Shown in pieces: positions 607-58,373 of a DNA stretch of 64,000 nt (position 1 is the stretch's first letter; every line of letters begins with the position of its first letter). The translations under genes were made by a program, and so were the position numbers. Source of the stretch: Escherichia phage U1G; sequence record NC_070872.1. The stretch is one strand, 5' to 3'. The notes beneath the pieces were generated by a model. The model ran no database searches. It was not told the DNA's origin and saw only the letters and a program-made list of their open reading frames with translations.

Positions 607-927
607 ATGGCGAGCATTGACTCACTGACCGTATGTAATACACGTCAGGCCCGTAACTTTATTATCCGTGCCCTGCAAGCAGGTAACGTACCGTTCCTGA
701 CTTCATCACCAGGCATGGGTAAATCTGCAATTATTCGTTCTGTTGCAGAAGAATTTGGTATGAAGCTGATAGACCATCGTCTGTCTACTTCTGCCCCAGA
801 AGACTTGTCAGGCCTACCATTCCGTAATGGTGACCATGCAGAGTTTATTCCTTTCGCTGATTTATTCCCTATTGAAGGGGATGAAATACCAGAAGGGTAT
901 AATGGTTGGCTCTTGTTCCTTAACTAA
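607..927 (+). CDS. MoxR-like AAA+ ATPase, N-terminal part (exon 1)
   Basis: Walker A SSPGMGKSA; ORF ends GWLLFLN-stop exactly where Walker B hhhhDE is expected; the DEFNSA continuation is found at 1804 in the downstream ORF. Confidence 0.6.
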   Translation: MASIDSLTVCNTRQARNFIIRALQAGNVPFLTSSPGMGKSAIIRSVAEEFGMKLIDHRLSTSAPEDLSGLPFRNGDHAEFIPFADLFPIEGDEIPEGYNGWLLFLN

Positions 928-1802
928 CGGGGCTTCATGAGAGTAATCTCATGTCGAAAGTTACCTAAACAGGGAACCTCTTCTAATCTGGTTGGCTCAG
1001 GTGTATACTTGAGTTTTAATCAATTGGAGACAATCCTGTGCTAAATAATGAAATTTGGAAAGATGTGCCCGACTTACCGTATGAAGTTTCCAACTTTGGC
1101 GTAGTACGCCGAAAAGAAGGAAAGTATAAATACAAAAATAGGACACACATAAAACCGTATCTTAATAACAAAGGGTACTACTGCGTGAACCTGTACATGA
1201 ATAGTAAAGTGTACAAATACCAAGTTCACCGTCTAGTAGGGTTAGCCTTTGTACCAAACCCTAATAACTATCCTATCGTTAATCATATAGATGGAAACCC
1301 TCTTAATAACCACGAGAGTAACCTGGAATGGTGTACCCAGTCTCACAACATGAAACATGCTTGGGATACTGGACTGCAATCAAACAGGCACGCTAATGCT
1401 AGTAATAAGAATCGTGGAGGCTCATCCAAATACGTAGGTGTATCCTGGAGTGAGCAAAGACAAAGATGGTGTGCCCATATAAGGGTTAACAAGAAATCTA
1501 TTGGTTTGGGGCGTTACAAAACAGAGGAAGAAGCTGCCAAAGCCTATGACTCCTATGTAACTAATAACAATCTTATACAGATTGGATACAGTACCAATTT
1601 CATTTAAACGCCAAACGACTATCGAAAACACGCAGCAATGCGGAAGTGAGTAGAGTAGGGTGCAAGCCAATGGCACTCGAAACGGTAACAGCCCTAGTAA
1701 TAGGGCTTTGATATAGTCTCCTCTGCATGGTGACATGCAGCAGTCAGTATTCACTGAGTGTACTGACGGCATTAGTAGTTGCGAACTAATGTGAAGATAA
1801 TG
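922..1802 (+). mobile_element. putative group I intron carrying an HNH endonuclease ORF, interrupting the ATPase gene
   Basis: Walker B split across the insertion; T at last 5' exon position (920) and G at 1802 fit group I splice rules and restore LLFL-DEFN in frame; structured-looking flanks; boundaries approximate. Confidence 0.4.
1038..1607 (+). CDS. HNH homing endonuclease with AP2 DNA-binding domain
   Basis: HNH_3-like NHIDGNPLNNHESNLEWCTQSHN and AP2-like YVGVSWSEQRQRWCAHIRVNKKSIGLGRYKTEEEAAKAYD; GTG start after GGAG. Confidence 0.7.
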   Translation: MLNNEIWKDVPDLPYEVSNFGVVRRKEGKYKYKNRTHIKPYLNNKGYYCVNLYMNSKVYKYQVHRLVGLAFVPNPNNYPIVNHIDGNPLNNHESNLEWCTQSHNMKHAWDTGLQSNRHANASNKNRGGSSKYVGVSWSEQRQRWCAHIRVNKKSIGLGRYKTEEEAAKAYDSYVTNNNLIQIGYSTNFI

Positions 1803-2541
1803 CGATGAGTTCAACTCAGCCAGAAAAGAAGTAGTAGCTGCTGCATATAAACTCATACTAGACCGTATGACTGGTCAGAAAAAACTTCATCCTAATGTGA
1901 TGATTATATGTGCTGGTAACAAAGCTACTGACCGAGCCATTGTTAACCCACTGGGTACTGCAATGCAGTCTCGTGTTGTCCACTTTGAAATGGAACTTAA
2001 CTTCGACATCTTTGTTGAAGACGTGATGATTCCATTTGAATGGGATGAGCGTCTGGTTGCATTCTTACATGCTAACCCGGGTTATCTGCATGACTTCGAC
2101 CCAGCACATAAGAACAAAACGTTCTGTTGTCCCCGTACCTGGGACTTTGTTAACAAAGACCTCAAGAACCGTCCTGAAGGTGCTCTACCTGACGAAGATT
2201 CTATCTACTACGCAGGGCACGTTACTGCTGGTAAGGCTACAGAGTTTGTTCAGTTTACACAGGTGTACAATCGTATGATTACGATTGAGAAGGTAGTCAA
2301 AGACCCTCTGGGCTGTGCACTACCGGAAGATAACAACCTGTGCTGGGCTACCGTTAACCATTTGGCTAATAAAACTACTGAAGAAAACTTCTCTGATGTT
2401 CTTCAGTACATTGAACGATTTAAAACGTTCACTCATAAGATTCTGTACTTCCGTACAGTAGGCAGAGCATTGCCAGAACTTCAGGCTACCCCTGAATGGC
2501 GTAAGGCTGCTTCCAATATCTCTCGTTACATTCACGGATAA
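1803..2541 (+). CDS. MoxR-like AAA+ ATPase, C-terminal part (exon 2)
   Basis: Frame open from 1801 reads DEFNSARKEVVAAAYKLILDRMTGQ...VMIICAGN (Walker B and sensor region); ORF track starts it at 1867. Confidence 0.6.
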
Positions 2542-2548
2542 TCACAAC

Positions 2549-3052
2549 ATGAACCAGATACCTCAGCACACACTTAGTGATGAACAACTCATGCGTGAGT
2601 ATGACCGTATTCAGGCGCAGGCATTTCTCGGACGTAGTGCAGCATTTTTTGGTTCATTACTGTGTAGTCTTAAGTTCTCATGGAAACGTGAAGACTGCCC
2701 CACTGCATGTACTGATGGAATAGAACTCCATTTCAACCCAGACTTCTTTATCTGGATGTGTCCAGATGCAAGAGAAACAGTGCTAATGCACGAACTCTGG
2801 CATGTGGCATATCTGCATGGCATCCGTCGTGGAAGCCGTGACCCAGAGGTCTGGAACCAGGCATGTGACCACTTCATTAATCTTCAGTTAGAAGAAGATG
2901 GATATAAGTTCACTGGTATCGACAAAGGCATTTGCAAAGACCCTCAATACAAAGGGTGGGTCGAAGAAGACATCTACGATGACCTGATGAAGAACCCTCA
3001 GAAAAGGCAGAAGCCGTCAGGGGTGCTGGAGCAGGTCTTGCTGGTGACATGA
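2549..3052 (+). CDS. VWA-partner protein, N-terminal metallopeptidase-like domain (HExxH, DUF2201-like)
   Basis: HELWH motif; directly downstream of the MoxR ATPase; probably one gene with 3049..3723 (frame break). Confidence 0.5.
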   Translation: MNQIPQHTLSDEQLMREYDRIQAQAFLGRSAAFFGSLLCSLKFSWKREDCPTACTDGIELHFNPDFFIWMCPDARETVLMHELWHVAYLHGIRRGSRDPEVWNQACDHFINLQLEEDGYKFTGIDKGICKDPQYKGWVEEDIYDDLMKNPQKRQKPSGVLEQVLLVT

Positions 3053-34000: not shown

Positions 34001-37000
34001 TCAACCATCATATCTACAGCAGGTTTCAGATTACCTTCCAGAGCTTTAGTCAGCTTTTCAGACATAGCTTCACGGGACATGTTATGTACCTTGATACCTA
34101 ATGCCTGAGCCAGACCTAACTGGAAGTCAGAGAATGTTTGGCTGTTTTCATTACTCAAGTCAATAGTAGAGAAGGTTGGCAGAATTGCTTCACGAACCAG
34201 TTTACTGGATTGTGGATTGTTCTTACCTAACATCTGCATACGACCTACACGGGTCATGTTGTAACCATAGTGAATAGGCGTATCCAGACCATTCTCCTGT
34301 TCCTGTAATTGATTGATTACACCAAACAAAGAGTCATATGCCATAGACACTGACAGGTTCTTACCTTCCAGTGATTTAGCAGTATTCACGTTCAGCAGTT
34401 CAGGATTAAGAGTACCAGCACCCATCAGTTCCAGAATGTTGTCACGACCTAATGCTTCATAGAAGTTAACCATCGGCATGTGTACACGGAACTCGGTAGC
34501 CTGTTCTGCTTTAAGAGCAGCTTTCTGCTCTGGGGTATTCTTAACAGCAGGGTTACGTAACTGAGTTTGAGCCACGGAAGGAATATCATCACCAAAGTAC
34601 ATTTTCTCTTCTGGTTCTACGAGAACAGCTTCCTCGATAGCAGTAGGGAACTTGTTAATGGCATCGTTATCGTCCAGCTTCTCAATAGTATATAGACCAA
34701 TAGTCTTATTGGAGTCTGGGTCAATCTCAGACACATCAAGCATAGATTCTTTAACTTCACCCATCTCAATGAGAGAAGACAGAATCTCTGTAGCCATTGC
34801 CATTGGAATACCTTTGGTATAACCCAGTGGTGCATTTGGATTACGGTCCAAACCCCAGTAAGATTCAATCTTTTGAGCCAGTGAGTTAGTAGCTTCAACC
34901 AGAGTCTGAGCATTCTCGAATTCAGCCAGAATACCTTCTGGTAACAGAGATGCTTCTACACCAGTAATAGCAGCTACGTCTTTCATATCTTTAACAGCAG
35001 CATTCTGTGTAGCAGTCAGTCGCCATTGCAGACCAGCAAGTACAGCAGTTTCTAACAACTGGTCATTAAACTTAAAGGTATCCCCATCTTTCTCTACGAT
35101 GTTAAGTAACTTACCACCTACCCAACGGTTAGCTTCAGTACCTTCTGCAAAACGTTTACCTACGTTCTTATTAGCAAGGAACTTAGCCAGACGGTCAGAC
35201 AAAGTAGTCTTCAGAGTTTCGCCAAAATCAAATAAGTCCTGATAACGCTTAATCACATCACTTGTGAGAGCGTTATTTTCTTTTTGAGTGAATGCTTCAA
35301 AGCGAGCAGCAGAAGACAGTGCTTTCTTAACATCAGTCAAAGGGGATTCAGAACCAATGGTTCGAGACTTAGATTCTTCCGGCAGAGTAAATGCCTTAAG
35401 GAACTGGTTCGGTGTCTTGTCATTGTTATAGACAGGGAACACTGTTTCCATTTGAGATAGGGGTTTACCACCAACGGTATAGTCTGCTTTCAGTTGAGCC
35501 AGAGATACCTCTATCTTCTCAACGTTATTGGTATTACGCCCAGACGTATCTACACCTATTTGAATCAGTGCATTGTTTGCTTCTACGAATGATTGAACAG
35601 TATTGAATTGTTCAGGAGTCAGCTTCTGATTATCAAACAGTTGCAATGATACAAACGGTTGTTCACTGCCTTTATAGAAGGTAGAGCGAATAGCACCAGT
35701 ATCTAATGACATATCACGATAACCATCATGACCAAATACGTCCGACAAGCTAATGTGGTCACCATTAGAGCCAACAACAGTACCGTCAGCAAAGAGCCAA
35801 GGACTCTCTTTACGATCACCATACTTATTAAGAGTATCTTGAGAAATAGTATTCTCTTTTACATAAGCATCTCTTTCAGATTCAGTAGACTGTACATCAG
35901 TATCCTGTTTTTCAGACTGGTTCTCAGGCTCTTTTACAGACTGTGGTTTAGACTCTTTAATAGTAGATTCTGTTTTAACAGCTTCACTAACAGAGGGTTT
36001 AGTCTGTACAGTAGAGGTAACTGGTTCCTGTTTCATAACAGGAGTTTCATCAACCTGATTCACTGGTTCATTGGTCTGTTGAGACTGAGTGGCATCAAGA
36101 CCACCTTGACGGAACTCTTTAACTACCTGGGCAGCAGGCTTGTCCAGACGTGAATCCAATGGGGTAACTTTCACATGAGAAACATTAAGCTCCGGGTAAG
36201 CCGTAGCAAGTGCATTAGCAATATCAGCTACGGTCTTGGCCTCCAGTCCTACTTGCTGGGCAAACTTAACAGACTTGGTATCATACGGATTGACACCGAG
36301 GCCAGTACGACTACGTACCCATTCACGGGAAGGAGTAAGAGCCTGATAATGGACAGACTTATTCTTATCCGCATTCCCAGAAATCAGATGCTCATTCAAC
36401 GCTCCGACCTTATTCTGCATGTGCTGGGCGAACTTCATAAAGTCGTCGAGATAAGCGGAAGCCAAATCGAAGTTACCAGAGTTGTACGCAGAACGAATGC
36501 GTTTAGCATGTTGCAACGCAGAGTACTGACCTTCATTAGAACGAGACTCGTCGGTTTTAATTTGTTTACTAACAATATCTTGAGGACGTAAGCCTAATTC
36601 TTCTGCTTTAGCGTCGAATTCACGTGCACCCTGTAACAAGGCAGCAGCCGATTGCAGGGCAGCACGTTGTCTATTCCCCAGTGTAATCTTACCTTCACTT
36701 GCATGTTTCAGAACCATGTTCACTGAATCTGCATCCAGTACTTCTGGAGACATATCAGCAGCCATAGCAATGTTGTTTGCTTGGGTTTGGTTAGCTTCTT
36801 CAGTAGCTTTCAGTTTACCCGCTTCAGCCTGCTCCTGAATCATGGAATGAATGGCACGGAATGCACGAAGTACCTTCGGTGTATTCTGAACGTTAGCCAT
36901 CAGGCCAGAGAACTGGTCAACAATATTAGCAGCATGAGAACCTTGTTCCAGGTTAGCCAGAGCACCTGGGTCACGGTTAATGAAGCTATCCATAGACATG

Positions 37001-48424: not shown

Positions 48425-50695
48425 TTACAAGTTCATGCCAAGAGCCGATGCTGGGTCTTGGCTAGGGTCATAGAATTGGGAACTAAGTGAATAAGCTGGG
48501 TCTTGTTGTGCAGCTAAGTCACGTTCTGGTATAGAGTTCCCGTTAGTCAAAGCGTTATATCCAACAGCAGCAGATATGTTGGGGGTAGTTTCACCTTCTT
48601 TAGTAGGTGTTGTCAACGCCTTAGTTATCTGAAGGTTTTGGTTTCCTTGGGATTGTGCTTTTTGTTTTTCCATATCACGAGCATGTTTAGTACCAGATTC
48701 CTGTTCCAGATAATCCAGGTCTTTAAGGTCACCACTAGAAGCAGCTTCTTTAGCTTTAGCATTATTGAGTGCAATCTTACTTTGTAACTCTTCATTCTCA
48801 AGCTGTGCTTTCTGAATTGCCAATTGCTTAAGCTGTTCTTCCATAGGGTCTGGTTGTGGTTGCCAAGTACGTAACTCATGAGCAAGGTCTGGCATACGTT
48901 TAAGTTCTGCAATCTTAGCTACAAGAGATAACGTAATAGACTGGTCAACTGTGTTGCCTAGTGTTTGAACCATGAAGCCCAAATCCTGGGACTTCTGGTT
49001 ATCAATTTCAGCAGTGTTAATATCAACCTCAATATCGAAGTTACCTTTAAGGTCTTCACGGTTAATTTCTACATACTGTTCATTAGTAATACGTACCACT
49101 TCCTTCTCAGATAAAAACACAGCATTCATTGCACAAATTTTAGTACCAATGTCTGCCATACCCTTAGCTAATCGACGAAGGATTGCCATCTCACGTTTGG
49201 ATGCTGCATCTAGTACACCACGAATACCAGCAGCTACATCACCGTAAGCTTCCCCAGTTACACCACCTGAGAATGCTTTAACACCAGTTAGTGCTTCTGC
49301 TTCCTGGTTTTGCATCTGAGTCATTACTATTGCCGATTGAGGTAACTCAGGGAACTTATGTTCCATGATGGCCTGACTAGGATTACCCTGCATTGGGTTG
49401 TATTCATAGTCTTGCCCATCATCATATCGACGACGGTTCAGGGTATCTAACATCCCTTTAGGGTAACCACGTTGACCATTTGCACTTCGACCCAACAGGT
49501 CAATCATCCCACGCATGGTTGCACCAAGAATTGCCTGGTTATCCCCCAACAGTTCAGCATCAGCTTCACCGTAGAGTTCACGTTTACGGGGCATATAAGG
49601 AACAACTACCAATGGTAACTTGCCGTCAGGAAATGGGTTCTTCTCCATACGAATAAGAGTAGAACCAATCCAGGTAGCAACAATTGGTTCCAGTGAACCA
49701 TCATCGTTAATGTCGTAGAATCCCCAATACTCATAAGCAATTACTTTCTTGCGAAGTGCATCCTTAAACTGGAAGTCACCAGGAGTTTTACTTTCATGGT
49801 CTGGGTCAGTCATAGGACTGGAACTTTCCCAGTCAATCTTATCCAGGTTGTGATAACGGTCTTTGTTCTTCATGAGGTCTGCTTTACATGTCTCAAACGA
49901 AATGACTGCATACAAAGCCTTATCCAAATCACCATTACAGCTTGGATCAATAACTACGTTATTGGGGTTAAGCATTTCAACGGTAGGTCTGTTAACCAGT
50001 GCTTTCTCTACTTCTACTTCAGTAACCCCCGTCTGGATTGCGTAAGTAGCTTCCCCGGTTTCATTGAAGTAGTTAACAGCTTCTTTAATATCTTCCGGCA
50101 TCGTCTCGTCATACTCACGAGGATTCTCTGCCTGAAGCTGCAAAGCCTGTTGAAGAACATCTGCTTGTTCCTGGTTCTCAATTGGATACAACTGGAAAAC
50201 TGGAGTTTCTGTTTTAATCTTAACAGTCTTACGCTCCCAGCCAATACGAGCAATACCAGTACCATCATCTACGACACTATGTACGTAATCGTCTACCAGT
50301 TTTACTTTATTAAGCTGAGTACGGAATTGGTAGTTAAGAACTAATTCATTCTGACGTGCAGCTAATTCATCTTCAAAAGTAACAGGAGTTACTTTAAAGA
50401 GTTTATTAGACGAGAGGAATGGTTCAGACAATGGTGCATAACGCCACTCTGCCTGACGGCGAACCAGTCTAGGTTGAACTTGCGAACGTCCTTTAACTTT
50501 GGGTGGTTTAGCCTTACCCTTAACTTCCATCAAGTCATTCCACTCACGAATCTGAGCCATGATTGCATCGTGAGCAGGTTTAGCTGATTCCAAATCACCT
50601 TTCAGTAATTGGATACTTGGTTCTTTCTTCCAGTCCGTTAACTTCTCTGATTGAGCCGGGTCTGGTAAAGGCTTAAAAGTGTCTTGGTGTTCCAT
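48425..50695 (-). CDS. portal protein
   Basis: 756 aa, upstream of scaffold and capsid in the morphogenesis block; by size and synteny. Confidence 0.55.
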
Positions 50696-50697
50696 AG

Positions 50698-51225
50698 TTA
50701 TTCCTGTTCAAAAAGTTTACGGTCAGCCTGAATCTGTTTACCCAACTCAATTAGTTGGCTGTCACGGAGTCTAACAGTTGCCCGGAGTTCTTCAACCAAA
50801 CGTCTGCCTTCTTCAAGACTGCTGTCGAGTTTGGCTGCATGGCTTGCAAGACTTCTGCACTCAAGGGTTCCGGCTTCGGCTTGACGTTTATATACCGATG
50901 CTCGTCTTTCAGACTGTTGCATCCGGCTGTCATAATCACTGCTAACGCGAGCAAGCTCGCTTGCGTAATTACTCTCAGCCGTCTGCAACCGAGAAGTGAG
51001 TAACCCGACTTCATAACTATGGTTTCTTTGGAGAGCATCGTATTTGTCCTGTAATTTTTGTATTGCCTTTTGGTCTTCAACCTTTTGGTTATCCCACTTC
51101 TTTTGAACAGTAGACTGCCCATTGGAATTACCCCAAAAGTAAATGGTGGCCCCAAGGACCACCACCAGAAGATAAGGCCAACCTTTAGAGATTAGCATCT
51201 TCATTACATGCCTCCAGTGGCACAT
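50698..51225 (-). CDS. i-spanin (Rz-like)
   Basis: N-terminal TM helix [16 protein letters not shown] followed by coiled-coil-like periplasmic domain; adjacent to the endolysin. Confidence 0.55.
50751..51014 (-). CDS. o-spanin (Rz1-like lipoprotein) embedded in the i-spanin gene
   Basis: Alternate frame inside the i-spanin: [32 protein letters not shown] with lipobox Cys, Pro-rich mature part. Confidence 0.45.
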   Translation of the reverse strand: MKSGYSLLGCRRLRVITQASLLALAVIMTAGCNSLKDEHRYINVKPKPEPLSAEVLQAMQPNSTAVLKKADVWLKNSGQLLDSVTAN

Positions 51226-51819
51226 TGCCTATTCGGTTAGCTACCCAACCATACGTAAAGTCTGGCATGTTTAATGAGGTATAGTGGTTTAGTTGTTTAG
51301 CATCAAGCAGCTTAATCATTACCTGACATGCTGCAACTTTGCCTCGTTTTTTCTGTAATGCTTTATAAGCATTAACAGTACTTGCACCGACTTTACCATC
51401 AACCTGTATTTTAGGGTAGTCTTTGCCATCACGGGACATTTCATTAAGGGATAACTGCAACCACTTAGCCGGACGGGTTACACCAGTATTAACACCAGCA
51501 TCTACCAGCTTATGCGTTACAGCAGGAGATATATCAGCGAAGGCTACGAAGTTAGGCTTAAGTACGTAGTCATCAATGTATATCTCAGCAGCCATCTCCT
51601 TAGATAAACCTTTCATAGAACCACCCCAACCATATTCAGTAGCCAGAACCTCCTTATGAGACTTAGCTACCGATTGGGTAATACCATGATTAGTTTCCCC
51701 ACCTGGGTCACGAGGATTGTTTACATAACCCCTTCCATATAGAACACTGCCCCCAGGATAGCAGCGACAACCCCTCCCACTGCACCACCTTTTGCAGCAA
51801 GTTTCTGTTTAGCTTTCAT
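51185..51819 (-). CDS. endolysin, glycoside hydrolase family 108-like N-acetylmuramidase with Gly/Ala-rich N-terminal hydrophobic (SAR-like) segment
   Basis: Short ORF from ATG 51819 reads MKAKQKLAAKGGAVGGVVAAILGAVFYMEG; one extra base at run 51729..51732 gives GGYVNNPRDPGGETNHGIT (GH108 signature) continuing into ORF 51185..51616. Confidence 0.55.
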
Positions 51820-52052
51820 GAGAATTTTCCTTTGGACGGAACCGTATTAATCTGCCTATGATGTTTAAGGCAAACAGTGCGATTGCAATATTGGAACCAT
51901 GGGGAATATCTTCCAGGATGTGACGAGGTAATCCTGTCACCATTGGTTGGATGATATCTACAGCAGAAAATAGAATTAAACCAAACGTACTAATTTGAAC
52001 GGATGCCCACTTCCAGGACTTCTTCCAGTTAGGTACTAACTCAAACTTTCTT

Positions 52053-52382
52053 TTAGCCTGCGAACCATGCGAATATCTCCCGTCTTGCAGCAGCCAATAC
52101 ACCAATAATTGCACCTGCTCCAGCCCATACCCACTTACCGAAAATTCCAGCACCAACAACTTTATGCTTAATGGTGATGAACTCTTCAATAGTAGGCTCA
52201 TTTTTAGCTAAACTATCCTCCACATTTTTCAGTCTATTACCTATGTCATTGATTGAATCCCGCAGTTCTCCTAGAGTTTCCTCCAGTTTCTCACGGTCCT
52301 GTCTGTCTCTTGTCTGGTTCTCAAACAGAGTCTTCAATCGTTCCTCCAGTCTGACTAGAAGCAGTTCACCCGATTCATTCAT
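52053..52382 (-). CDS. putative membrane protein (holin candidate): coiled-coil N-terminus and C-terminal TM helix
   Basis: C-terminal VVGAGIFGKWVWAGAGAIIGVLAAA; first gene of the lysis cluster; the +1 frame downstream (to 51809) encodes two more TM helices but has no start codon. Confidence 0.35.
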   Translation of the reverse strand: MNESGELLLVRLEERLKTLFENQTRDRQDREKLEETLGELRDSINDIGNRLKNVEDSLAKNEPTIEEFITIKHKVVGAGIFGKWVWAGAGAIIGVLAAARREIFAWFAG

Positions 52383-52640
52383 AATATTACCGTAGTTGTA
52401 AAGTTAAGAACCCCTATGGGGTCGTATCATAAGATGACTCTTAGATAATACTTAGTATGCTGAAATACATCCAGACAAAGAGACGAGCAAAACCTGTGCT
52501 TTGTAGAAAGGGCATCATTGGATATATTCAATACCCTATGGGGGAGAGTTACCCTAACCATTTTTACAGTTAGAGCAATGGAATCAGCAAACACTAATGG
52601 GTTTGGTAGTGGGGTACTAAATTTACCCCACTACCTAAAT

Positions 52641-53174
52641 TTACTGCTTCAAGCCATATACAATAATATCTGCACCTAATGTAGTCCACGCTTCGTCACC
52701 ACGAGAACTTGCGCAGTTAACCGTAAACCCAGAAGGGGTTTGGTTAGTAACGCTAAATACAGGGGCAATACTCTGCAATGCACCAATACCCCCATTAAAG
52801 GTTACGGCTACACGATAATCCAGTAAGTTAATAGGTAGTGTTACTTCAGTACTACCAGCGGAACCAGTAGAGCGGGTGATAGATATACCCTTACGATAGA
52901 TGAATTGCCCATTACGCAAACCAGATAAAGTGGTGTTATCGGAGAGTGAGTCCACAATATCCCCAGCAACAATACCAATACCAGTTAAATCAGTATTAGT
53001 AATGATTCGTACACCACCTTCCTTGGTTCTTTCTAGTACCCTGGTTCCAGAAGCCAGACTGTATTTACCAGTTAATGTACTACGACAGGTAACGTTAGTA
53101 AGGTCAAAATAGTTATTAGAGCTGCTGGCATCATTAATAAGGTAAGAGAAGTTAACACATCGCACATTACTCAT
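52641..53174 (-). CDS. tail spike A, C-terminal part
   Basis: 177-aa ORF; frame is open upstream across the 53210 stop and joins ORF 53210..54010 after a one-base correction at 53220..53223. Confidence 0.5.
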   Translation of the reverse strand: MSNVRCVNFSYLINDASSSNNYFDLTNVTCRSTLTGKYSLASGTRVLERTKEGGVRIITNTDLTGIGIVAGDIVDSLSDNTTLSGLRNGQFIYRKGISITRSTGSAGSTEVTLPINLLDYRVAVTFNGGIGALQSIAPVFSVTNQTPSGFTVNCASSRGDEAWTTLGADIIVYGLKQ

Positions 53175-54525: not shown

Positions 54526-54774
54526 ATAAACCTCTTTGTTTTTCTAAGTAAGCCCCTATTTGGAGGGGCTTGCAGTGGTAGTGACAACACTTTGAGTTAG
54601 TACGATAGTAACTAAAGACAAGATTAACCCTGCTACGATGTGTTTTCATCATTTTATCCCATGGCGATGACATGCACTTGCAGGACATAGTTTGTGTGAA
54701 TCGTAATGAAGTCCATGATGTCACATTTATAATTTCCCCGCCGAAGCGGGGTCTAGAAATACTGGTTTAGGATT

Positions 54775-56217
54775 TCACTTCCACCGCCCCTCCGCATGGT
54801 AGGCAGCAAACACCACAGTATCTGTTGCAGCCGCCGAGAGAGAGTGCCCTCTAACCCCGCCAATAGCCGTGTTGCTAATGCTGTCGATAGCAATCACACC
54901 ACGGCGGATATCAGTTGCCACGCCAGGAGTAACCTTGTATTGCAATGTGACAGTAGGTGGGGCAATAAACGTTGCCCCAAAAGTGATGGCTGGCCCAAGC
55001 GTTGTGTATGGGTCTGCAAATGTCCCCGCTCCAGATGCGATTCTACTGCCAAGGTTTTTGTCCCCATACGCCCGCATTGCCCCGGATGGTTCCTTAACCA
55101 CATACCCATCTCCTGCTGGGCCGCTGTATTCTGTCCCGCTAATGAGTGGCACGCCATCCGATGTATATGCCTTGGCCTTATTAGCAAATGTGCCAAAATC
55201 AATCGACGCATCAGAAACCTCGATCTCTGCACTCGGGGTGGTGAGGATACGGCTGGCGCCCTGGTTATTCAAAACCACACCAGCTGGCGCTCCCACGGAC
55301 AACTTACCATCGAGGTGAAACTCTCCGCCATTCCCAATAATCATGACCGGTCCTGGTAGCGATGAGAACTGCCTGAGGTCAAAGTCTAACTGCGCTGTTC
55401 TCTCCACCTCCAGTCTTACCTGTGATCCCAGTAGTGGTCGTGTGGAATCATAAACCGAGATGGAAATTGGCGCTGAAGCGGTAGGGGTGACGATCGGATA
55501 CGCACCATTTGAATTCTCGGTGATGAACTTCACCGTACCCTGGATCTTCACGTTGGCACTACCAATTATTAGTTGCCGCAGAGTGTTAGATCTGAAAACT
55601 GAATCCCGAAGTTTAACCCGAGCCCACCTGGCGTTTACGACCTCAAATGTACTGTGCAAGTCAGAATCAACAACGGTGATTGATGGCGTGTAGCGATCCA
55701 GCATCCCGGCAATACCGACGTTCTCGGTCAATACCAGCAATCCTGATCCCCCTATGCCGAAAGACTTGCACCCAATAACCCAGGAATCTATTCCGCGACC
55801 GCCGAATCCTGCTCCTGTTCCACCTTCAGCCTCACAGTCTAAAAATCGGATGTCGTATGCCGCATGGTGGGTGTCAAAATGGTCCGCCGTCGCACCATGC
55901 GATTTGCACCCGATAACCCGGCCACCCACTGTGTTTCCGCCAGAAAATGCCAACAGAGTATTCTCTGCGAGCGATACCCGCAGGGTGGTGTAGCTATGCC
56001 GGCATTTCCCGAACGTGCAGTTCTCTACGCGAGAGAAATAGCCGCCGTCACAAATTCCATAACCATTCTGCACCCCGGCTTCATTGTCAGAAAATTCCTG
56101 CATATTGCATTGGTTAATGTAAGCGTAGAGAGTTCCGTCCAGATAAATGCCAGAGCCGTAAGCGCGCGTCATATTCACACCCCGCACTACAGGCTTATGA
56201 TATGCCCTAATTGACAT
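54775..56217 (-). CDS. tail spike B, C-terminal module (GC-rich)
   Basis: 480-aa ORF of much higher GC than the rest of the window; upstream frame continues into ORF 56217..58373 after a one-base correction at T6 run 56278..56283. Confidence 0.55.
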   Translation of the reverse strand: MSIRAYHKPVVRGVNMTRAYGSGIYLDGTLYAYINQCNMQEFSDNEAGVQNGYGICDGGYFSRVENCTFGKCRHSYTTLRVSLAENTLLAFSGGNTVGGRVIGCKSHGATADHFDTHHAAYDIRFLDCEAEGGTGAGFGGRGIDSWVIGCKSFGIGGSGLLVLTENVGIAGMLDRYTPSITVVDSDLHSTFEVVNARWARVKLRDSVFRSNTLRQLIIGSANVKIQGTVKFITENSNGAYPIVTPTASAPISISVYDSTRPLLGSQVRLEVERTAQLDFDLRQFSSLPGPVMIIGNGGEFHLDGKLSVGAPAGVVLNNQGASRILTTPSAEIEVSDASIDFGTFANKAKAYTSDGVPLISGTEYSGPAGDGYVVKEPSGAMRAYGDKNLGSRIASGAGTFADPYTTLGPAITFGATFIAPPTVTLQYKVTPGVATDIRRGVIAIDSISNTAIGGVRGHSLSAAATDTVVFAAYHAEGRWK

Positions 56218-58373
56218 TACCGTTGGGCCATAAGTCTTCCCTTCCGGGTACTCGATGTTGCCGCCAACAAAACGGAATTTTTTGAAGTATCAACGAGCGC
56301 AACTCTGGCACCCCATGCAAGGCTGTACGGATTGACCACCGCAGTTTCTGCGTAATCCATCCCCTCAACGAACTGAAGCGGCTTATCCAATACCAGATTG
56401 GTAGTGGTGCTTCCAGCGCCGACGCGGGCATATTCCTGGATGCGGTATTTGTTGGAATTCCCAATCCTGGTGCGGTCTGCCGGATTCACTGCATTAGAAA
56501 TGATACGCACCCAATCACCGCGTTTCGGTGCGTTCGGCAGGTTGACTGCCAGATTTTTCGATCCAGCAACATAATCCGCAGTGAGCGGGTAGAGGGATGG
56601 GTTTGCATTACCTTCAGCAAAAAGCCAGGTATCGCCAGTATCAATAATATAATGCGCATTCCCGGCATCCCAATTCATATGCCCTGTAGTGGAAATCTGA
56701 GTTGTGAATTTGCGCGTAATTACATTTGGCTCATGGATTTTATTTTCCGGGCTTAAAGCCATCCAGTTCGCAGCCAACTGGGCGAACGGGGTTGTGTCAC
56801 TTGTACCATCTATCGGCGCACCCCAGTGGTCGAGGGTCGCCACGTGTGGAGGCTTAAAACCAAGAAGATCTGGAATGCTTGTCGCAGTGCTATCACGGAT
56901 GTATTCCAGTCCGCCTGCGATAACACTCATCCCATCGGCAATATTATTCCCTGGTGCGTAGCTGACTAATTCCGCCCGAGAGCCAAACCGAGCCAGTACA
57001 CCAACGCTCAACCAAGCTCCTACTCCAATACCACCAGTAGATGTAGGGGTTGATTTCTGTGAAACGGTATTCGCCAGCGCGCCATCCCAAATATAGCACT
57101 GCCCACCAGCGATATGCCAAACAGCATCAGTTGCACTGTTCACTGTGGCACCTTCTTCAAAGCTACCATCTACAAGTGTTAATCCCGCTTCCGCAAGACT
57201 ACGACGCCATAGTTCTCTGGTATTCTGCTGTTGGTAGGTATCTAGCAGAGTAACAGTAATATTCCCAGGAGAATAAGTTAATTGCCCATTTGAGACAGTG
57301 TTAATGTAAACATTGGCAGGTAGAGTAGGTAACCCATGTATACGTTGGGTAACTACATCGTAAAGTACCTTTTTACCATTAAGTACCTGAGTAGTGTCCG
57401 TGCTAAGAATTACCTCAGAATCTTTAACGTTAGTTGCACGAGCCACTACCTGAATAGTATGGTCTGCTATCTCAAGTACCTTAGCTTCCCCACCCAATTG
57501 AACAATTAAACGGTCATTCGTAGCCAAGGGTTCAGTAAGAATGATTCGATTGTTGTCTGAGTCAATCGTATAGGAGTTATTAGTTAACCCTTTATAGAAA
57601 CGTAAGCCATTCTTGTATACAGCAGGCACAGATCGGAAGGTATAAGGAATATCAATTACCTGTTCCCCACCTACAGCAGCACCCTGGTTGTACAACCAGT
57701 TAATAGTTACCCAATCAGAAACATTAGGATTATCAGGAGTTGCAGGAACACCTGTACGCATAACTACAACAAAGTCCCCTTGCTCCAAGGGAGTAGTAAA
57801 CTTAATCTCAAAGGTTAACGGGTCATACTCAAAATCGTAACCCTCAGTCTGCCAGTCACCATTAACAATCATGAATGGTACACCAGCCGTTTCATCCGGG
57901 ATACGAATGGTAGTCTCGCCACCAATGGCTGAACCAGAGTTATAAATCCACGGGATGTATCCACCATCACTAGAAGACTCACCACCACCGGATGAACCGG
58001 AAGTAGCTACTTTAATCCATGAACCCGTTGCAGTAGCATCATCTGGTAGGATGCCGGTACGGTCGCCCTCTACGTACAAGTAGTCAGTGACCTGACGGTC
58101 ACCAGCAGGGGTCTTGCCATAGATACGAGCAAAGGAAGCCTTAGTAGTTAACGCCTTAAGTTCTGCTTCTGATTGTACACCAAGTACCATTCCATACTGA
58201 TTCAGGAAGTCATAGATAAGTTTCAGGTTACCAAGGTTACAGTAAACAGTACGAACCACATGATAAGCATTACCTAGTAGTGCATCTACCATTGGGTCAT
58301 TGGAACTGTTTTGACAGTAAGGATTGGTCCAATCCTGATTTGCATCAAAGGGGGTATGTGCGTTCATCGCCAT
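56217..58373 (-). CDS. tail spike / tail fibre B, N-terminal anchor and central part
   Basis: 718-aa ORF; AT-rich N-terminal ~380 codons, GC-rich C-terminal ~340 codons. Confidence 0.6.
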   Translation of the reverse strand: MAMNAHTPFDANQDWTNPYCQNSSNDPMVDALLGNAYHVVRTVYCNLGNLKLIYDFLNQYGMVLGVQSEAELKALTTKASFARIYGKTPAGDRQVTDYLYVEGDRTGILPDDATATGSWIKVATSGSSGGGESSSDGGYIPWIYNSGSAIGGETTIRIPDETAGVPFMIVNGDWQTEGYDFEYDPLTFEIKFTTPLEQGDFVVVMRTGVPATPDNPNVSDWVTINWLYNQGAAVGGEQVIDIPYTFRSVPAVYKNGLRFYKGLTNNSYTIDSDNNRIILTEPLATNDRLIVQLGGEAKVLEIADHTIQVVARATNVKDSEVILSTDTTQVLNGKKVLYDVVTQRIHGLPTLPANVYINTVSNGQLTYSPGNITVTLLDTYQQQNTRELWRRSLAEAGLTLVDGSFEEGATVNSATDAVWHIAGGQCYIWDGALANTVSQKSTPTSTGGIGVGAWLSVGVLARFGSRAELVSYAPGNNIADGMSVIAGGLEYIRDSTATSIPDLLGFKPPHVATLDHWGAPIDGTSDTTPFAQLAANWMALSPENKIHEPNVITRKFTTQISTTGHMNWDAGNAHYIIDTGDTWLFAEGNANPSLYPLTADYVAGSKNLAVNLPNAPKRGDWVRIISNAVNPADRTRIGNSNKYRIQEYARVGAGSTTTNLVLDKPLQFVEGMDYAETAVVNPYSLAWGARVALVDTSKNSVLLAATSSTRKGRLMAQR

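Follow-up and report, generated by a model that had tools for sequence, protein, structure and literature searches.

A five-gene lysis cassette upstream of the portal gene

The 64,000-nt stretch of DNA analyzed here (referred to as the window) belongs to an N4-like phage of the genus Gamaleyavirus (Schitoviridae, Enquatrovirinae), with Escherichia phage PGN829.1 as its best match at about 96-98% identity. On the minus strand, from 52382 to 50698, it carries five genes with short overlaps, flanked by a tail-spike gene (stop at 52641) and a portal gene. The genes are listed below in the order in which they would be transcribed, with gene products named after their homologs in phage N4.

52053..52382, minus strand: gp63-like gene for a predicted pinholin, 109 aa, intact in the window
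51809..52068, minus strand: gp62-like predicted holin gene, 86 aa after one A is restored, with two transmembrane (TM) segments and a DUF7940 match
51185..51819, minus strand: gp61-like gene for a predicted SAR endolysin, 211 aa after one G is restored, GH108 N-acetylmuramidase plus PG_binding_3
50698..51204, minus strand: gp60-like gene for a predicted i-spanin (Rz-like), 168 aa, with GGAGG 6 nt before the ATG
50751..51014, minus strand: gp60a-like predicted o-spanin, 87-aa precursor, fully nested within the i-spanin gene, which is read in a different frame
48425..50695, minus strand: portal gene, N4 gp59 homolog (SU10_portal/P22_portal), directly downstream of the cassette, which fixes the synteny

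An earlier sequence-only reading of the window had described a compact lysis cassette at this place, and we agree, as the five products are homologous to N4 gp63, gp62, gp61, gp60, and gp60a. The gene order, the use of a single strand, and the position immediately upstream of the portal gene are those of the N4 family of cassettes. Neighboring genes overlap by 16 nt (pinholin/holin), 11 nt (holin/endolysin), and 20 nt (endolysin/i-spanin), and the same three overlaps recur in phages Bp4, UE-M6, and St11Ph5. As given, the window does not hold intact frames for all five genes, the holin and endolysin genes each being one base short; these broken frames are attributed to the sequence record and leave the family assignment unaffected.

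A 1.9-kb query covering the cassette (50600..52500, minus strand) matched 93 phage records, with PGN829.1 at the top (97.8% identity over the full length) and UE-M6, Bp4, St11Ph5, and others ranking next at 94-96%. For most of its length, the remainder of the window can also be aligned to PGN829.1, at ~87-97% identity. The four named Gamaleyavirus relatives (G7C-like) are 94.5-97.8% identical to the window across the cassette at the nucleotide level and share an identical architecture of 109, 86, 211, and 168 aa with an embedded o-spanin, but differ from it in having five bases at both sites where the window frames break, so that their genes are intact. A sigma-70 promoter scan of the cassette returned four sites, compared with 4.5 +/- 1.9 in shuffled sequence, i.e., no excess; all four lie on the non-coding strand, and no promoter was assigned.

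The pinholin gene

The first gene of the cassette is complete and encodes a 109-aa protein, in which a cytoplasmic coiled-coil region at the N-terminus is followed by a single TM segment near the C-terminus (residues ~80-98); a coiled coil and one TM helix had already been described for this open reading frame (ORF, 52053..52382). The protein matches phrog_5211 (E 3e-50) and is 69% identical to N4 gp63 over 107 aa (BLASTP, E 7e-54), with which it shares the C-terminal TM anchor and a conserved region beside the TM domain (TMD). N4 gp63, a 110-aa protein with a C-terminal anchor and a cytoplasmic coiled coil, is a pinholin: it can stand in for a defective S21 but fails to do so for a defective lambda S (Awuah et al., bioRxiv 10.1101/2025.11.12.688109). 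By homology to gp63, the 109-aa protein probably has pinholin activity.

The N4 rapid-lysis positions T65, I70, T71, and I72 are kept in the window pinholin, while S62 is replaced by Asn, and a Leu (TTG) stands where N4 has the internal start Met17. G7C, a member of Gamaleyavirus, was reported to be without lysis inhibition (bioRxiv 10.1101/2025.11.12.688109). Gamaleyavirus pinholins, that of the window among them, depart from N4 gp63 at one rapid-lysis position and are without the Met17 start, and this could conceivably relate to the reported lack in G7C-like phages, which we consider unlikely; the link to the G7C phenotype is speculation and is separate from the frame breaks discussed below. 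If it were true, the Gamaleyavirus pinholin would offer a small natural-variant handle on the lysis-inhibition mechanism of N4.

The holin gene and the apparent +1 frame change

Directly after the pinholin ORF, two further TM helices are encoded in the +1 frame. The sequence-only reading had noticed these helices, found no start codon for them, concluded that a base would have to be removed to join them to the 109-aa ORF, and suggested a real overlap or a programmed +1 event. Its frame arithmetic and its pair of TM helices are correct, but the helices belong to a gene of their own, and a +1 change is seen only by treating them as a continuation of the pinholin ORF. This gene starts in the third frame with an ATG at 52068..52066, which GGGAG precedes at a spacing of 8 nt. 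As given, this gene reads MVRRLKESLS followed by a stop, its frame being broken five codons past the ATG at the following site:

52051..52054, minus strand: AAAA in the window, site of the proposed one-base deletion in the holin gene

Adding one A here, rather than removing a base, joins the ATG to the two-TM frame, in the same manner as the other breaks in the window are mended. The gene then reads MVRRLKRKFELVPNWKKSWKW... and continues across the two TM segments until it ends at 51809. The corrected product matches Pfam DUF7940 (E 3e-13) and phrog_1356 “holin” (E 5e-29), and is 61% identical to N4 gp62 (BLASTP, E 8e-40) and 88-97% identical to the annotated holins of the relatives.

The first two A's of the AAAA (52054..52051) are shared with the TAA stop of the pinholin gene. 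Among 12 relatives, the site is AAAAA in eight, while the other four have AAAGA, AAATA, GAAAA, and, in N4, a divergent sequence; all 12, N4 included, are one base longer than the window. At the corresponding site in the endolysin gene described below, most of the relatives have GGGGG and the others GGAGG or, in N4, GGTGG. Because non-homopolymeric versions occur at each site, the five bases are required by the frame. Bp4, UE-M6, and St11Ph5 each have an annotated holin gene of 86 aa that starts 16 nt before the 109-aa gene stops. As an independent set, we examined eight assemblies in which the 109-aa protein is identical to that of the window, namely one GenBank genome plus seven metagenome/Logan contigs. 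A separate 86-aa gene with the 16-nt overlap is called in seven of the eight, and the eighth contig stops just past the 109-aa gene. Wherever these contigs extend far enough, the complete set of 109, 86, 211, and 168 aa is found, except in one metagenomic contig (L014), in which the endolysin is split into 175 and 46 aa.

A programmed +1 frameshift, or a functional overlap, would fuse the 109-aa protein with the two TM helices into a three-TM holin. In favor of this, the two-TM frame indeed lies +1 from that of the 109-aa protein and, in the window sequence as it stands, lacks an ATG near its start. In all relatives, however, the two-TM frame is continuous with an ATG that lies 16 nt before the end of the pinholin gene and is preceded by GGGAG, and a shift from the pinholin to the holin frame would have to be -1, so that the +1 geometry exists in this window only. 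When the site was tested as a recoding site, the +1 configuration was conserved in none of the 12 relatives, in which the downstream frame has its own ATG and Shine-Dalgarno sequence, and the A4 state itself was likewise found in 0/12. As the site is non-homopolymeric in some of them, it is not a conserved slippery sequence. In N4, gp63 and gp62 act as separate proteins, each of which can be deleted alone, and gp62, which has two TMDs as predicted for the window holin, is a canonical holin, non-essential and late in triggering (bioRxiv 10.1101/2025.11.12.688109). For N4 gp63 and gp62, pinholin and holin activity has been demonstrated, the criteria being lethal triggering upon depolarization and complementation of S21 or S105 defects. 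We therefore rejected the fusion of the 109-aa ORF to the two-TM frame, because the relatives carry a pair of genes and the holin begins at a start codon of its own, and we regard the probability of such a recoding event as close to nil. The gp63-like pinholin and the gp62-like holin are two separate overlapping genes and not a single holin, and the second is interrupted in the window alone, through the loss of one base from a homopolymer.

The holin could also be made in a longer form, with GTG 52134 or ATG 52128 as its start. For N4 gp62, a longer form of 109 aa has been proposed (bioRxiv 10.1101/2025.11.12.688109). We considered a dual-start motif, i.e., an in-frame extension of 22 codons with GTG 52134 and ATG 52128 in the window vs. 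ATG and ATG in N4, and did not accept its conservation as independent evidence, since these codons are largely forced by the overlapping pinholin residues Lys-Trp-Val-Trp.

The endolysin gene

Two features of the third gene need to be distinguished, namely its frame break and the N-terminal segment that the break separates from the rest of the protein:

51729..51732, minus strand: GGGG in the window, where the endolysin gene is proposed to have lost one base, within the codons for Glu-Gly-Gly of the EGGY motif
51739..51801, minus strand: putative SAR-type segment, residues ~7-27, LAAKGGAVGGVVAAILGAVFY, Gly/Ala-rich, abutting the EGGY of the catalytic domain

As given, the endolysin is split into a 32-aa ORF (51721..51819) and a 143-aa ORF (51185..51616). 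All 10 relatives that cover the G run are one base longer than the window. With one G restored, the protein matches both PF05838 (Glyco_hydro_108; E 7e-20, 71.9 bits vs. a Pfam gathering cutoff of 21.2) and PF09374 (PG_binding_3; E 1e-7, 32 bits vs. a cutoff of 24.6), and it is 69% identical to N4 gp61 (BLASTP, E 1e-108) and 97-99.5% identical to its counterparts in the relatives. The nucleotide differences from the relatives fall mostly on third codon positions (e.g., 0/2/23 and 2/1/25 at positions 1/2/3), a bias that shows purifying selection on both sides of the break.

The corrected protein begins with MKAKQKLAAKGGAVGGVVAAILGAVFYMEGGY. Its SAR-type segment contains no acidic residue, the first one in the protein being E29, and is preceded by the lysines K2, K4, K6, and K10. 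Over residues 7-25, the 19-residue Kyte-Doolittle mean is 1.78 and the G+A+S+T fraction is 0.58, compared with 2.17 and 0.47 by the same measures in N4 gp61. The segment is thus weakly hydrophobic and rich in G/A/S/T, with a basic flank and no acid inside, which are the sequence traits expected of a SAR segment. PGN829.1, Bp4, and St11Ph5 have the same first 48 residues. Position-independent Hessa-scale insertion energies gave similar positive sums for all segments over stretches of 19 residues, and so did not set the SAR segment apart from ordinary TM segments.

The solved GH108 muramidases of Salmonella type 10 secretion systems (PDB 6v3z and 6v40; E 7e-27 and 5e-20) have the same GH108 and PG_binding_3 domains but lack the N-terminal Gly/Ala-rich membrane segment of the window endolysin. 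They align with it from residue ~19-23 onward, and its EGGYVN is aligned to the same motif in both. The Glu of the EGGY motif is catalytic in GH108 enzymes. Because the solved enzymes align only from residue ~19-23, the N-terminal segment is an addition to the catalytic fold. The earlier description of a GH108 endolysin with a SAR-like N-terminus is thus borne out, both Pfam domains and the Gly/Ala-rich segment being found after frame correction.

The same N-terminus might instead be an ordinary cleavable Sec signal peptide. It has a positively charged n-region followed by a hydrophobic stretch, and L-G-A before V at residues 22-24 loosely fits the -3/-1 rule, which makes cleavage formally permissible. 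The stretch is, however, ~18-20 residues long and rich in Gly/Ala/Val rather than in Leu, and it adjoins EGGY directly, with the residues from ~19-23 aligning with the first helix of the solved GH108 enzymes. Further, N4 gp61, which has a similar Gly/Ala-rich segment followed by EGGY, is a SAR endolysin that is membrane-associated, works with a pinholin, and complements R21 (bioRxiv 10.1101/2025.11.12.688109). Charge insertions in its N-terminal segment, such as the negative charge of G12E, lead to rapid lysis (bioRxiv 10.1101/2025.11.12.688109), and the equivalent Gly is kept in the window endolysin. The muramidase itself was first described by Stojkovic and Rothman-Denes in 2007, as cited by Awuah et al. 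(bioRxiv 10.1101/2025.11.12.688109). We thus consider a cleavable signal peptide very unlikely, and by homology to gp61 the window endolysin would behave as a SAR protein.

The spanin pair

The longest ORF of the i-spanin gene comprises 175 aa (50698..51225), and its likely start gives a protein of 168 aa with an N-terminal TM segment (hydrophobic residues 3-21) and a periplasmic helical domain. This protein matches phrog_6197 “Rz-like spanin” (E 2e-77) and is 58% identical to N4 gp60 (BLASTP, E 6e-61), and the relatives carry the same 168-aa gene.

The presence of a lipoprotein o-spanin inside the i-spanin gene in another frame, likewise proposed earlier, is confirmed, with 50751..51014 lying entirely within 50698..51204. 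The o-spanin is part of a 134-aa ORF (50751..51155) and has a lipobox (IMTAG before Cys) from which a mature lipoprotein of 56 aa would result, starting with CNSLKD and having Asn rather than Asp at position +2. A search of Pfam and PHROGs with the o-spanin returned no match, and its identity was set by comparison with the gp60a frame of N4, to which it is 71% identical (BLASTP, E 9e-32). The ORF, the lipobox, and the mature length of 56 aa are kept in nine related phage sequences and in N4. The start codon of the o-spanin has no clear Shine-Dalgarno sequence, and the start Met of its signal peptide lies farther upstream than in N4; in St11Ph5, the o-spanin is annotated as gp60.1 from an upstream Met. 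In N4, gp60 and the embedded gp60a form a functional two-component spanin that complements lambda Rz/Rz1 (bioRxiv 10.1101/2025.11.12.688109), and the gp60-like and gp60a-like pair of the window probably has the same function.

Frame breaks as probable under-called homopolymers

In an alignment of the 1.9-kb cassette region to PGN829.1, Bp4, and UE-M6, the only indels are the two described above, A5 to A4 in the holin gene and G5 to G4 in the endolysin gene. We took a census of homopolymers, comparing every run in the well-aligned stretches of the window with PGN829.1, which served as the reference for run length:

Runs of 3-4 bases in PGN829.1: 1,734 compared, 0 shorter and 0 longer in the window
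Runs of 5 or more bases in PGN829.1: 74 compared, 11 one base shorter and 0 longer in the window

The 11 short runs are located in an HNH gene, two hypothetical genes, the single-stranded DNA-binding protein (SSB) gene, a virion structural gene, the endolysin gene, the holin gene, the tail-spike gene (twice), and two stretches without PGN829.1 annotation; the nine besides the A and G runs of the cassette lie near 3020, 5095, 6699, 12946, 24024, 26291, 40626, 53219, and 54243. As the deletions depend on run length, go in one direction, and affect many essential genes of a virulent phage, they point strongly to under-calling of homopolymers in sequencing or assembly as the cause of the holin and endolysin breaks.

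Alternatively, both one-base deletions could be real, in a defective or decaying phage copy with an inactivated holin and endolysin. The breaks do stand in the sequence as given, and the metagenomic relative with the endolysin of 175 and 46 aa shows a split of this gene too. Against this, the window has at least 11 deletions, all of them of one base and all in runs of 5 or more, with none in the 1,734 shorter runs, a pattern too length-specific and too one-directional for random mutation. SSB, virion proteins, and the tail spike would be broken as well, the codons flanking each break are under purifying selection on either side, and N4-like phages are virulent, without a prophage stage in which such decay could proceed. 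We hold genuine inactivation to be extremely improbable, and are highly confident that the window contains a standard N4-like five-gene lysis cassette in which the two frame breaks are one-base homopolymer artifacts.

Comparison with N4 and phage 21

The lysis cassette of N4, gp63-gp62-gp61-gp60/gp60a, has been dissected experimentally by Awuah et al. (bioRxiv 10.1101/2025.11.12.688109). It resembles that of the window in gene order, in orientation upstream of the portal gene, and in its short overlaps, with all five proteins 58-71% identical; the N4 o-spanin also has a mature length of 56 aa. N4 belongs to Enquatrovirus whereas the window phage belongs to Gamaleyavirus, and the one-base homopolymer deletions in the holin and endolysin genes are found in the window only.

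The lysis mechanism of the window cassette is carried over by homology from N4, where it has been demonstrated. After export, the endolysin would stay in the inner membrane in an inactive form, tethered there by its N-terminal segment, which is Gly/Ala-rich and weakly hydrophobic. At a programmed time, the pinholin would depolarize the membrane and the endolysin would be released into the periplasm, with the second holin possibly serving as a late back-up route. The spanin pair would then disrupt the outer membrane.

The S21/R21 system of phage 21 follows the same logic, in which a membrane-tethered endolysin is freed by a small-hole holin that depolarizes the membrane. No sequence relationship between the two would be expected: in the window cassette, a GH108 muramidase serves as the enzyme, and a single C-terminal TMD and a long cytoplasmic coiled coil make up the pinholin. 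The S21 pinholin has two TMDs.

Implications for annotation

There is no new biology in the cassette; it was already known, as were its SAR-like endolysin and its embedded o-spanin. The main value of this analysis is the correction of a “+1 frame change” to two overlapping genes and a missing base. With at least 11 one-base deletions in 64 kb, all in homopolymers of 5 or more, the assembly needs polishing before it is annotated, without which genes such as those for the holin, the endolysin, SSB, and the tail spike would be miscalled.

The public annotation of this cassette is also poor in the relatives, in which the holin frequently goes unannotated and part of the i-spanin is annotated instead of the o-spanin. 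The gp63 homolog is often labeled “tail length tape-measure protein”, and the PGN829.1 annotation is without a holin gene. In PGN829.1 and Bp4, a 74-aa “Rz-like spanin” is annotated that is in fact the C-terminal portion of the i-spanin and is read in the same frame as that protein; its identity is based on phrog_20026, which matches i-spanin residues 95-168.

Shortened Homopolymers and Broken Genes

Compared with the relative PGN829.1, the window contains 11 homopolymers of 5–7 bases that are each one base short (at about 3020, 5095, 6699, 12946, 24024, 26291, 40626, 51729, 52051, 53219, and 54243); no lengthened homopolymers were found in this comparison, and runs of 3–4 bases showed no length difference. 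The genes broken by the shortened runs are an HNH gene, two hypothetical genes, and those encoding the SSB, a virion structural protein, the endolysin, the holin, and the tail spike (broken twice), and homopolymer polishing of the window assembly is needed.

A split endolysin is also present in a metagenomic relative, L014, which has six gap positions relative to the window:

ENA ERZ28634608 scaffold_17480, 1689..2320: endolysin called as 175-aa and 46-aa products

L014 seems to be another assembly with an endolysin frame error, located elsewhere in the gene than that of the window.

Tail-Spike and Intergenic Regions

BLASTN against PGN829.1 gave no alignment for window positions 54545..57394, 921..1804, and 35453..36039, the largest of which falls within the tail-spike region. 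This suggests that U1G carries a receptor-binding module different from that of PGN829.1, and therefore also differs from it in host serotype specificity.

A 263-nt intergenic region (52383..52645) separates the tail spike from the pinholin gene; as a whole it folds far more strongly than its shuffles (z = -5.2), and it contains two hairpins:

52605..52635, minus strand: perfect 12-bp hairpin with a 7-nt loop (arms GGTAGTGGGGTA and TACCCCACTACC), directly downstream of the tail-spike stop codon
52423..52409: second terminator-like hairpin

These structures probably act as transcription terminators or RNA-stabilizing elements. In many relatives, an opposite-strand gene of 208–217 aa and unknown function occupies this place, as in:

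Bp4 (L002), 848..1501
UE-M6 (L003), 848..1474
L009–L012, 2250..2876

The window and PGN829.1 lack this gene and have only the intergenic region of about 260 nt there.

Annotation and Pinholin Residues

Public annotations of the lysis cassette in PGN829.1, Bp4, and UE-M6 are unreliable. The gp63-like pinholin is labeled “tail length tape-measure protein”, and the PGN829.1 record lacks a holin CDS even though the gene is present in its DNA. What PGN829.1 and Bp4 list as a 74-aa “Rz-like spanin” is in fact the C-terminal portion of the i-spanin; both records lack an annotation for the complete i-spanin and for the o-spanin embedded in it.

Relative to its characterized homolog N4 gp63, the window pinholin has Leu (TTG, residue 16) in place of Met17, the internal alternative start, and Asn (residue 61) at the rapid-lysis position S62, whereas the remaining four rapid-lysis positions are kept. 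Both substitutions are common to four Gamaleyavirus genomes, namely U1G, PGN829.1, Bp4, and St11Ph5.
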